A stretch of DNA of 64,000 nucleotides from Escherichia coli (GCF_003334385.1 NZ_QOWN01000005.1); one strand, 5' to 3'; counted from the first letter of the stretch, positions 1-2,088 are shown. Numbers and translations: made by a program. Notes: generated by a model from the letters alone, not told the origin.

Positions 1-62
1 TTTTTCGTCTTGCGACGTTAAGAATCCGTATCTTCGAGTGCCCACACAGATTGTCTGATAAA

Positions 63-75
63 TTGTTAAAGAGCA
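63..75 (-). promoter_or_regulatory. rRNA leader boxA antitermination motif (TGCTCTTTAACAA read on the minus strand)
   Basis: Minus-strand sequence matches the conserved rrn leader boxA; the surrounding leader (CAATTTATCAGACAATCTGTGTGGGCACTCGAAGATACGG) matches E. coli rrn leaders. The 16S gene would lie beyond coordinate 1. Confidence 0.7.
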
Positions 76-115
76 GTTGCGACGCGGCTTTCAGCTCACT
101 GTCGCGAGGTGGCGT

Positions 116-143
116 ATATTACGCTTTCCTCTTTCAGAGTCAA
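116..143 (-). promoter_or_regulatory. rrn P2 promoter (-35 TTGACT, 16-bp spacer, -10 TAATAT on the minus strand)
   Basis: Minus-strand GGTTGACTCTGAAAGAGGAAAGCGTAATATACGCC closely resembles the rrnB P2 promoter. Confidence 0.7.
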
Positions 144-225
144 CCCTGAATTTCAGGATTTTTCTCTTCAACCGAACCGGCTGTTTGTGTGAAGTGATTC
201 ACATCCGCCGTGTCGATGGAGGCGC

Positions 226-280
226 ATTATAGGGAGTCGGCTCAGGAAGACAAGCGGAAAAATGCATTTTTATTTCAACC
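226..280 (-). promoter_or_regulatory. rrn P1 promoter (-35 TTGTCT at 248-253, 16-bp spacer, -10 TATAAT at 226-231) with A/T-rich UP-element-like tract upstream (about 255-280)
   Basis: Minus-strand TTGTCTTCCTGAGCCGACTCCCTATAATGCGCC is near-identical to the rrnB P1 core (TTGTCAGGCCGGAATAACTCCCTATAATGCGCC); the upstream stretch is A/T-rich. Confidence 0.75.
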
Positions 281-293
281 GCTCATCTTTTAA

Positions 294-869
294 TCATTGT
301 GCCGGTTTTTGCTGCTTTTTTATCGCTTGCGGCAGGTCTGCCAGGCTATTTAACACCCAATCCGCCGCGTTTTCTGCTTCAGGCGTAATAGGTTTACCCG
401 TACGCACCAGCACTTTTGTTCCCACGTTCGCCGCAACCGCTGCCTGCATATCTTCTAATTTATCGCCCACCATATAAGAAGCGGCCATATCAATATGCAA
501 ATAATCGCGTGCTGACAAAAGCATCCCCGGATGTGGTTTGCGGCAATCGCAGACCTGGCGAAACTCTTCAACACTACCCTGCGGATGATGCGGGCAATAA
601 TAGATACCATCCAGATCGACATCTCGGTCCGCCAGCGACCAGTCCATCCACTCGGTCAGCGTTTCAAACTGTGCTTCGGTAAATTTACCGCGAGCAATGC
701 CAGACTGGTTGGTTACTACCACCAGCGCAAAGCCCATTTTTTTTAGCTCGCGCATGGCGTCAATAACACCGTCGATAAATTCAAAGTTGTCGATCTCATG
801 GACATAGCCGTGATCGACATTAATGGTGCCATCACGGTCAAGAAAAATTGCGGGTACGCTCTTCGCCAC
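294..869 (-). CDS. gmhB: D-glycero-beta-D-manno-heptose-1,7-bisphosphate 7-phosphatase
   Basis: 191-aa ORF starting [26 protein letters not shown]-phosphatase DxDGT motif, recognised as GmhB. The start codon reads GTG in the DNA. Confidence 0.93.
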
Positions 870-958
870 CTTTTATAGCTCCTTAATAAGGCATGTGACG
901 CTAGTATCGCATGTTTCGACCTGCAAGAAAGTGCTCTTCGCATAAACCTGATTGATTT

Positions 959-966
959 AGACGTCT
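959..966. promoter_or_regulatory. candidate MetJ box (AGACGTCT) in the gmhB-metN divergent spacer
   Basis: Perfect palindromic 8-mer AGACGTCT about 90 bp upstream of metN; flanking 8-mers match the met-box consensus only partially. Confidence 0.45.
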
Positions 967-1056
967 GGATGCCTTAACATCCATTTCATTGACGGCGTTG
1001 CCCGTTTCAGGCATTCGAGATGCCACGACTAACTTAATGACGATAATAAATAATCA

Positions 1057-2088
1057 ATGATAAAACTTTCGAATATCACCAAAGTGTTCCACCAGGGCAC
1101 CCGCACCATCCAGGCGTTGAACAACGTCAGCCTGCATGTGCCAGCTGGACAAATTTATGGCGTTATCGGTGCCTCAGGCGCGGGTAAGAGTACGCTTATA
1201 CGTTGTGTAAACCTGCTGGAGCGCCCAACCGAGGGTAGCGTGCTGGTCGATGGCCAGGAACTGACCACGCTGTCAGAATCCGAGTTGACCAAAGCTCGCC
1301 GCCAGATTGGTATGATTTTCCAGCATTTTAACCTGCTCTCTTCGCGTACTGTTTTTGGCAACGTGGCTCTGCCGCTGGAGCTGGACAACACACCGAAAGA
1401 CGAGGTCAAACGTCGCGTGACGGAATTGCTGTCATTGGTTGGTCTTGGCGATAAGCATGATAGCTACCCGTCGAATCTTTCCGGTGGGCAGAAACAACGT
1501 GTGGCAATTGCCCGTGCGTTAGCCAGCAATCCCAAAGTATTGCTGTGTGATGAAGCCACCAGCGCGCTGGACCCGGCAACGACACGTTCTATTCTCGAAC
1601 TGCTGAAAGACATCAACCGCCGTCTGGGGTTGACGATTCTGTTGATCACCCACGAAATGGACGTTGTGAAGCGCATTTGTGATTGCGTGGCGGTCATCAG
1701 CAATGGAGAACTGATCGAGCAGGACACGGTAAGTGAAGTGTTCTCGCATCCGAAAACGCCGCTGGCGCAGAAGTTTATTCAGTCGACCCTGCATCTGGAT
1801 ATCCCGGAAGATTACCAGGAACGTCTGCAAGCGGAGCCATTTACTGACTGCGTGCCGATGCTGCGTCTGGAGTTTACCGGTCAATCGGTCGATGCCCCAC
1901 TGCTTTCTGAAACCGCGCGTCGTTTCAACGTCAACAACAACATTATTAGCGCGCAGATGGATTACGCCGGTGGCGTTAAGTTCGGCATCATGCTGACTGA
2001 AATGCACGGCACACAACAAGATACGCAAGCCGCCATTGCCTGGCTGCAGGAACACCATGTAAAAGTAGAGGTACTGGGTTATGTCTGA
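1057..2088 (+). CDS. metN: methionine ABC transporter ATP-binding protein
   Basis: 343-aa ORF with Walker [10 protein letters not shown] and ABC signature LSGGQKQRV; recognised as MetN. Overlaps metI by 8 nt. Confidence 0.95.

Follow-up and report, generated by a model that had tools for sequence, protein, structure and literature searches.

How far does the control region of a ribosomal RNA promoter reach into the protein-coding gene that precedes it, and does it leave a mark on the codons of that gene? The question arises at one edge of a 64,000-nt stretch of Escherichia coli DNA (this whole stretch is called the window below), where the minus strand carries the promoter region of an rRNA operon directly behind the 3' end of gmhB. 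The initial annotation had proposed that the Fis sites of rrn P1 lie within the last codons of gmhB, which would then be under dual coding and regulatory constraint. Our main reading, to which we give a probability of about 0.85, is that the minus strand of window 1-360 is a standard enterobacterial rrnH control region packed onto the 3' end of the co-directional gmhB gene, with dual-use codons. The window edge is thus an ordinary rrnH control region in which nothing new is hidden. It also provides a clean small case of overlapping codes, in which a predicted Fis array sits at fixed positions in a gene with no indel across the sampled Enterobacteriaceae.

Anatomy of the gmhB–rrnH junction

E. 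coli K-12 is 100% identical over window 1-1100, as are thousands more E. coli chromosomes. MG1655 coordinates are obtained by subtracting the window position from 223702, and this segment is the reverse complement of the metN-gmhB-rrsH region. The mature rrsH gene (16S, rrnH) begins 70 nt past window base 1, and the window does open within an rrn leader on the minus strand, as had been annotated. The coordinates given in the initial annotation for boxA, the gmhB stop codon and the other elements all proved right when the sequence was re-read. The features discussed below are collected in Table 1.

Table 1. Features of the gmhB–rrnH junction (window positions; numbers preceded by a minus sign refer to P1, position -n being window 217+n)
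Feature	Window position	Strand	Sequence or elements	Basis or remark
boxA antiterminator	75..63	minus	TGCTCTTTAACAA	exact match read from the sequence
rrnH P2	143-138 (-35), 121-116 (-10)	minus	-35 TTGACT, 16-bp spacer, -10 TAATAT	promoter scan, 9/12
rrnH P1 core	253-248 (-35), 231-226 (-10), 217 (+1)	minus	-35 TTGTCT, 16-bp spacer, -10 TATAAT, discriminator GCGCCTCC, +1 A	promoter scan and homology
UP element	255..276 (-38 to -59)	minus	GAAATAAAAATGCATTTTTCCG	A/T-rich, 17/22 bases; entirely intergenic
Predicted Fis site I (-71)	281..295	minus	GATTAAAAGATGAGC	PWM 9.3, 99.98th percentile of the 64-kb window
Predicted Fis site II (-91)	301..315	minus	GCAGCAAAAACCGGC	PWM 6.8, 99.77th percentile of the 64-kb window
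Predicted Fis site III (-134)	344..358	minus	GGGTGTTAAATAGCC	PWM 9.7, 99.99th percentile of the 64-kb window
Lys184-Lys185 codons	315..320 (-103..-98)	minus	AAA AAG	A-tract flank and -7 G of predicted site II
gmhB	869..294; stop 296..294	minus	stop TGA	ORF list, RefSeq annotation, PDB 2GMW match

The product of gmhB matches PDB 2GMW over its full length (residues 1-191, E 6e-130), and its homologues carry HAD Pfam domains, as expected for a D,D-heptose-1,7-bisphosphate phosphatase of the HAD superfamily. Relative to P1, the stop codon ends at position -77, and the distance between the stop codon and the P1 -35 hexamer, estimated previously at about 40 bp, measures exactly 40 bp. No intrinsic-terminator-like site was detected on the gmhB/rrn strand, either from the gmhB stop codon to P1 or elsewhere in window 1-1100, and hence gmhB transcripts must enter the rrnH promoters and leader.

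A promoter scan returned five promoter-like sites, with 1.5 expected from shuffled sequences, and placed P1 at the top with 10/12. The +1 of P1 (A217) was assigned by homology with rrnB P1. The sigma-70 core, consisting of a near-consensus -35 hexamer, a 16-bp spacer, a consensus -10 hexamer and GCGCC, is nearly invariant in at least 64 species; the -10 element and the discriminator are essentially invariant, without a single change from -13 to -2 in 80 species. The description of P1 as near-identical to its rrnB counterpart holds for the hexamers (11/12) and for TATAATGCGCC, which is identical, but not for the region from -41 to +3, where just 31 of 44 positions agree because the spacer differs. 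A second promoter in tandem, P2, lies downstream of P1 at the roughly 110-120 bp expected for an rrn P1 promoter, and boxA follows in the leader before the 16S gene. The layout of rrnH P2 is that of rrnB P2, and boxA occurs at the equivalent place in 7/7 K-12 rrn leaders.

The UP element that had been expected upstream of P1 is present, and its location can be refined, as all of it sits in the 40-bp intergenic gap. Most of its columns have undergone 0-8 changes on the species tree and three columns at least 10 (80 species), to be compared with 10-20 or more at typical synonymous sites. UP function is ascribed to all seven rrn P1 promoters in the literature.

Predicted Fis sites and their conservation

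The search for Fis sites relied on a 21-bp symmetric heuristic PWM, fixed before rrnH was examined and derived from published descriptions rather than from a curated site set. According to one of them (PMC4784862), the motif has G/C at +/-7, an A/T-rich centre and Y-R steps at +/-3-4, and A at -4, T at +4 and G at -8 are penalized; another (PMC2018646) gives the consensus ATTGGTTAAATTTTAACCAAT and an anti-consensus. As a positive control, the best three positions of this matrix in rrnB, between -330 and -55, are the known sites at -143, -71 and -102. The best three positions in rrnH are -134, -71 and -91. Placement of the rrnH sites at the rrnB positions -102 and -143 was rejected, as these positions have background scores.

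In K-12, predicted site I takes its -7 G from the TGA stop codon of gmhB, predicted site II spans codons 185-190, and predicted site III falls within codons 171-176 (W V L N S L). The predicted centres of sites I, II and III correspond to MG1655 positions 223414, 223394 and 223351. Two matches, -91 and -134, are thus found in the interval 294-400 where Fis sites had been sought, and site I overlaps the stop codon. The sites had been anticipated in the last 20-30 gmhB codons and up to about -150. Sites II and III do lie in the coding region, in about the last 21 codons, but reach only to about -141. The spacings of 20 and 43 bp correspond to about 2 and 4 helical turns, which would place all three predicted sites on one helical face, with -91 and -134 as the at least two further in-phase upstream sites looked for in such an array. 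A loose rule (G..C at +/-7 and an A/T centre) picked the same three centres in window 270-420; since this rule matches 0.7% of all positions, three matches in 150 nt are not rare on their own. The exact centres -91 and -134 are predictions from the sequence.

To place these predictions in an evolutionary context, 80 Enterobacteriaceae loci were scanned, one genome per species, with GmhB proteins 86-99% identical. In all 80 loci gmhB runs directly into rrn P1, and most contigs end soon after, in the rrn repeat. From the gmhB start codon to P1 the DNA is colinear, with 0 indels in 81 Enterobacteriaceae. In this set the median PWM score is at least 4 between -330 and -58 only at -71 (7.7), -91 (7.8) and -134 (9.7), with an overlapping register at -130 scoring 4.2. 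The proportion of species above the 99th background percentile is 100% at -71, 96% at -91 and 91% at -134, and 91% of species have a site III score of at least 4.9.

The pattern of substitutions, counted by parsimony on a neighbour-joining tree, follows the motif. Zero changes were found at G-78, C-64, G-98, C-84 and C-127; conservation extends to the A/T centres, and variation is free at +/-4 to 6. Site I has G-78 and C-64 in 81/81 species, and its positions -77..-75 vary freely. In site II, the invariant pair is G-98 and C-84 (81/81 species), and the A-run at -93..-90 is conserved. Site III is weakened in about ten species of the Citrobacter clade, where Leu or Phe (TTA, TTG, TTT, CTG) stands in place of Trp171, G-141 becomes T and the score drops to as low as 2.8. 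This replacement removes the -7 G, and site III is therefore not universally kept.

Outside the Enterobacteriaceae, rrn P1 again follows gmhB, with unchanged spacing, in 5/5 complete genomes (Yersinia, Serratia, Erwinia, Hafnia and Dickeya). Despite diverged site sequences, all five have a PWM match at -71, and -91 and -134 are matched in four genomes each, site III being absent by PWM from Yersinia ruckeri. The GmhB tails of these genomes differ entirely (KMRIK, KKRV, KQG, KQRF and KKRDKQSM). Thus the array, which steers codon choice while the tail drifts, is also kept in representatives of four other Enterobacterales families.

Within the Enterobacteriaceae, the gmhB stop shifts by point mutation among -77, -80, -86, -89 and -92, with protein lengths of 185-191 aa, and in most genera the stop codon lies within predicted site II. 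The GmhB tail after approximately residue 185 would be free in length and sequence, with the frame running to whichever stop occurs in the regulatory DNA.

Length polymorphism is seen even within E. coli, at window 297-302 (-85..-80), where K-12 and O157 have GCR CAA TGA and a protein of 191 aa, and in other strains a TAA or TGA one codon sooner yields a protein of 190 aa. An exact K-12 match over window 262-330 was found in 1216/5418 genomes. Differences among four aligned E. coli strains cluster in the linker between sites II and I, the others being at -69, -63/-62, -54 and about -40; the +/-7 G/C of sites I and II are untouched. The E. coli GmhB crystal structures 3L8E, 3L8F and 3L8G contain chain residues 1-187 and lack the last four (188-191; window 297-308), which is consistent with a tail dispensable for folding.

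Codon choice in the gmhB 3' end and competing explanations

The species tree carries about 15 synonymous changes per codon. An excess of synonymous conservation, which had been suggested as a check on the 3' end of gmhB, is mild in bulk and pronounced only locally, at the sites. The bulk observed/expected ratio is 0.74-0.83, and the last 15-20 shared codons fall at the 13th-15th percentile of metN/metI/gmhB windows, which is not significant. By comparison, the ratio is 0.05 at codons 184-185 (1 change vs 20.3 expected), 0.72 at codons 172-176, which form the site III core, and 1.06 at all other codons in 151-183. As a positive control, metN codons 334-343, lying over the metI start (2081) and its ribosome-binding region, have a ratio of 0.12-0.2 (window approximately 2056-2088), the strongest signal in the three genes. 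Further low ratios were observed in the first ten or so codons of metN (0.31) and at about codons 193-217 of metI (0.3-0.5).

The bulk signal is weak because many synonymous changes are still compatible with the degenerate Fis motif. As such changes are permitted, the bulk sliding-window rate was rejected as the main test, and the real PWM score of each species was ranked instead, by exact convolution, within the scores of every synonymous coding sequence possible for its protein. The median percentile across species is 0.98 at -134 and 0.97 at -91, the species values being non-independent owing to shared ancestry, and the real score exceeds the recoding expectation by 4.4 and 3.5 units, respectively. 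Unselected control positions (n=490) have a mean percentile of 0.53, and 1.4% of them reach 0.9. The percentile from a single genome was dropped because it is biased upward for sites picked by their high score; the cross-species values and matched controls were used in its place. The matched controls were coding positions with a K-12 PWM score of at least 4.9, of which the seven best retained across species were recoded; their median percentiles are 0.52-0.89. Only one control, at metN index 260, is equally well retained, and there the amino acids fully account for the motif (expected score 8.8, percentile 0.69).

Individual codons point in the same direction. G is the third base of codon 185 in 81/81 species, including those that have Q, T, M or S at this residue, and Lys184 is encoded by AAA in 80/81. 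Codon 187 is CAA in 59 cases and CAG in 2, vs a ratio of 22:78 in the codon pool, and Asn174 is AAT in 66 and AAC in 9 (pool 39:61). Val172 uses GTG or GTA (GTR) in 76/81 species vs 53% in the pool, and the rare ATA codon is enriched at gmhB codons 173 and 183. Frozen single Lys codons also occur in the baseline (2/22).

The synonymous constraint is local and motif-shaped, with no general slowdown. The bias goes beyond what the protein and codon usage explain and is maintained across species, which is what defines a dual-use codon. The proposal of dual coding and regulatory constraint on the gmhB 3' end is upheld, with recoding percentiles of 0.97-0.98 vs 0.52-0.89 in the matched controls. Anatomy, motif matches, conservation and codon-level bias are all direct observations.

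Could the Fis-like motifs within gmhB be a by-product of protein constraint, imposed by the helix D-W-V-[IL]-N-S-L and the Lys/Gln-rich tail, so that only site I and the UP element are functional? The amino acids alone indeed give an expected PWM score of 4.3 at both sites, the maximum among the 490 controls being 3.69, and the chance motif at metN index 260 is kept in 100% of species by protein constraint alone. Moreover, the upstream Fis sites of rrnB P1 reportedly contribute little. However, in most species the real scores stand above the protein expectation by the margins given above, and the percentiles are far from the 0.69 of the metN motif. Protein constraint also fails to predict that the third-base G of codon 185 withstands amino-acid changes, that C-84 and G-78 never change, no matter whether the gmhB frame of a species extends over them or stops short, that the predicted -91 site persists in other families with a completely different tail, or that the preferences for CAA, AAT and ATA are reversed relative to the codon pool. 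We consider this explanation very unlikely.

Slightly less probable still is a non-Fis role for the conserved DNA upstream of -80, such as intrinsic curvature from phased A-tracts, H-NS or Lrp binding, or the need to avoid a long A-run on which RNA polymerase or the ribosome would slip in the Lys codons. The positions of the A-runs (about -101, -91, -72 and -55) roughly follow the helical repeat, H-NS reportedly binds rrnA, rrnB and rrnH in genomic SELEX (PMC4696680), AAG at codon 185 interrupts what would be a run of nine A, and the A at -101 is frozen though the PWM barely weighs that position. Neither curvature nor H-NS predicts invariant G/C positions 14 bp apart with variable positions between them, three times over, and slippage avoidance leaves C-84, the CAA at codon 187 and site III unexplained; besides, such functions can coexist with Fis binding. 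Both explanations are disfavoured relative to a Fis array written into gmhB by the same three observations, namely the G/C pairs 14 bp apart, the third positions invariant under residue change, and the sites that outlast the turnover of the tail.

Related promoters and the putative mode of action

A close parallel to the predicted rrnH array is rrnB P1. The two promoters share the -35 TTGTCN, the 16-bp spacer, TATAAT, the GCGCC discriminator, an A/T-rich UP element, Fis site I at exactly -71, in-phase upstream sites, boxA and a tandem P2. Each is preceded by a co-directional gene that ends shortly before site I, its stop codon reaching to -82 in murI and to -77 in gmhB. Since murI ends at -82, the rrnB Fis sites II and III fall within its last 20 or so codons, and there they have recoding percentiles of 0.99-1.00, similar to rrnH. 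The differences are in the upstream sites (predicted at -91 and -134 in rrnH vs -102 and -143 in rrnB), in the -35 hexamer (TTGTCT in rrnH, TTGTCA in rrnB), and in the spacer and UP sequences. Further, site I itself overlaps the stop codon in rrnH, unlike in rrnB.

The third case is rrnA P1, where the co-directional hemG ends at -86 and predicted Fis sites at -71, -91, -111 and -123 enter the last hemG codons (K-12 only). The recoding percentile is 0.99 at -111 and -123; the gene is another one, and the site positions differ from those of rrnH. Upstream of rrnG in K-12, clpB ends at -152 with a hairpin terminator in between, and the genes next to rrnC, rrnD and rrnE are divergent. Of the seven K-12 rrn operons, three (A, B and H) thus lie behind a co-directional protein gene whose end is 77-86 bp from the P1 start.

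A similar arrangement of sites is known outside the rrn operons. The tyrT promoter reportedly has Fis sites at -71, -91 and -122. It is likewise a stable-RNA promoter with three in-phase sites, the first two located as predicted for rrnH; it differs in being a tRNA promoter and in the third site, at -122 rather than -134.

Fis binding upstream of rrnH P1 has been published. Purified Fis shifts an rrnH promoter probe of about 500 bp, the number of sites being in agreement with Hirvonen et al. 2001, and a fis mutant has lower rrn reporter activity (PMC4696680). As summarized in the same source, Hirvonen et al. 2001 found three to five Fis sites per rrn P1. Genomic SELEX detected H-NS binding to the rrnA, rrnB and rrnH promoters (PMC4696680), exactly the operons whose upstream region overlaps a co-directional gene. 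The coding overlap itself was not found in the literature on rrnH/gmhB/Fis and on murI/rrnB P1/Fis; the supplements of the Salmonella Fis ChIP-seq study contain no mention of gmhB, yaeD or rrsH, and the Fis ChIP-exo paper does not discuss rrn. With the rrnB sites II and III placed alike in murI, the locus is known biology, as the initial annotation had it, and the additions made here are evolutionary depth and codon-level evidence only.

Partly following this literature, we infer both Fis occupancy at these exact coordinates and the mechanism of activation. The UP element (-38 to -59) would be contacted by the alpha C-terminal domains of RNA polymerase. By analogy with rrnB P1, where this is established, Fis bound at site I (-71) would activate P1 by touching the alpha-CTD, and the in-phase upstream sites at -91 and -134 could be auxiliary, adding activation and bending. 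Synonymous positions in codons 172-176 and 184-188 would then be restricted to bases compatible with the Fis motif.

It is doubtful, though somewhat less so than the explanations weighed above, that the gmhB–rrnH overlap is more than passive packing. Every gmhB transcript would have to cross DNA occupied by Fis and RNA polymerase on its way into the rrnH leader. Bound Fis or RNA polymerase could block gmhB expression, and thereby the supply of LPS heptose, as a roadblock whose strength follows the growth rate. Read-through from the gmhB promoter could provide P1-independent transcription of rrnH, and might contribute to the relative rise of rrsH under nutrient limitation (PMC6312700). If the overlap is active in this sense, the C-terminal tail peptide of GmhB would be dictated by regulatory DNA and not by protein function.

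On the practical side, an rRNA promoter can be altered when the gmhB 3' end is deleted or recoded "silently", and the 3' ends of murI and hemG, with the same layout, may carry the same risk. Scans of synonymous rates should expect 3'-end signals beside rrn operons.

Two minor observations concern the leader region. Window 53-300 on the minus strand matches the Rfam family Ysr197 (RF02849, "Yersinia sRNA 197") over the full model (1-254) with 145 bits and E 9e-37, below the gathering score of 167. Since the match spans the gmhB stop codon, P1 and P2 and continues to just past boxA, Ysr197 looks like an rrn promoter and leader, not an independent sRNA gene. Finally, a perfect palindrome, CCTGAAATTCAGG, lies at window 145-157, directly upstream of the P2 -35; read on the plus strand (antisense to rrn), with ATTTTTCTCT behind it, the palindrome has a terminator-like score, and a second terminator-like plus-strand match, at 111-125, overlaps the P2 -10.
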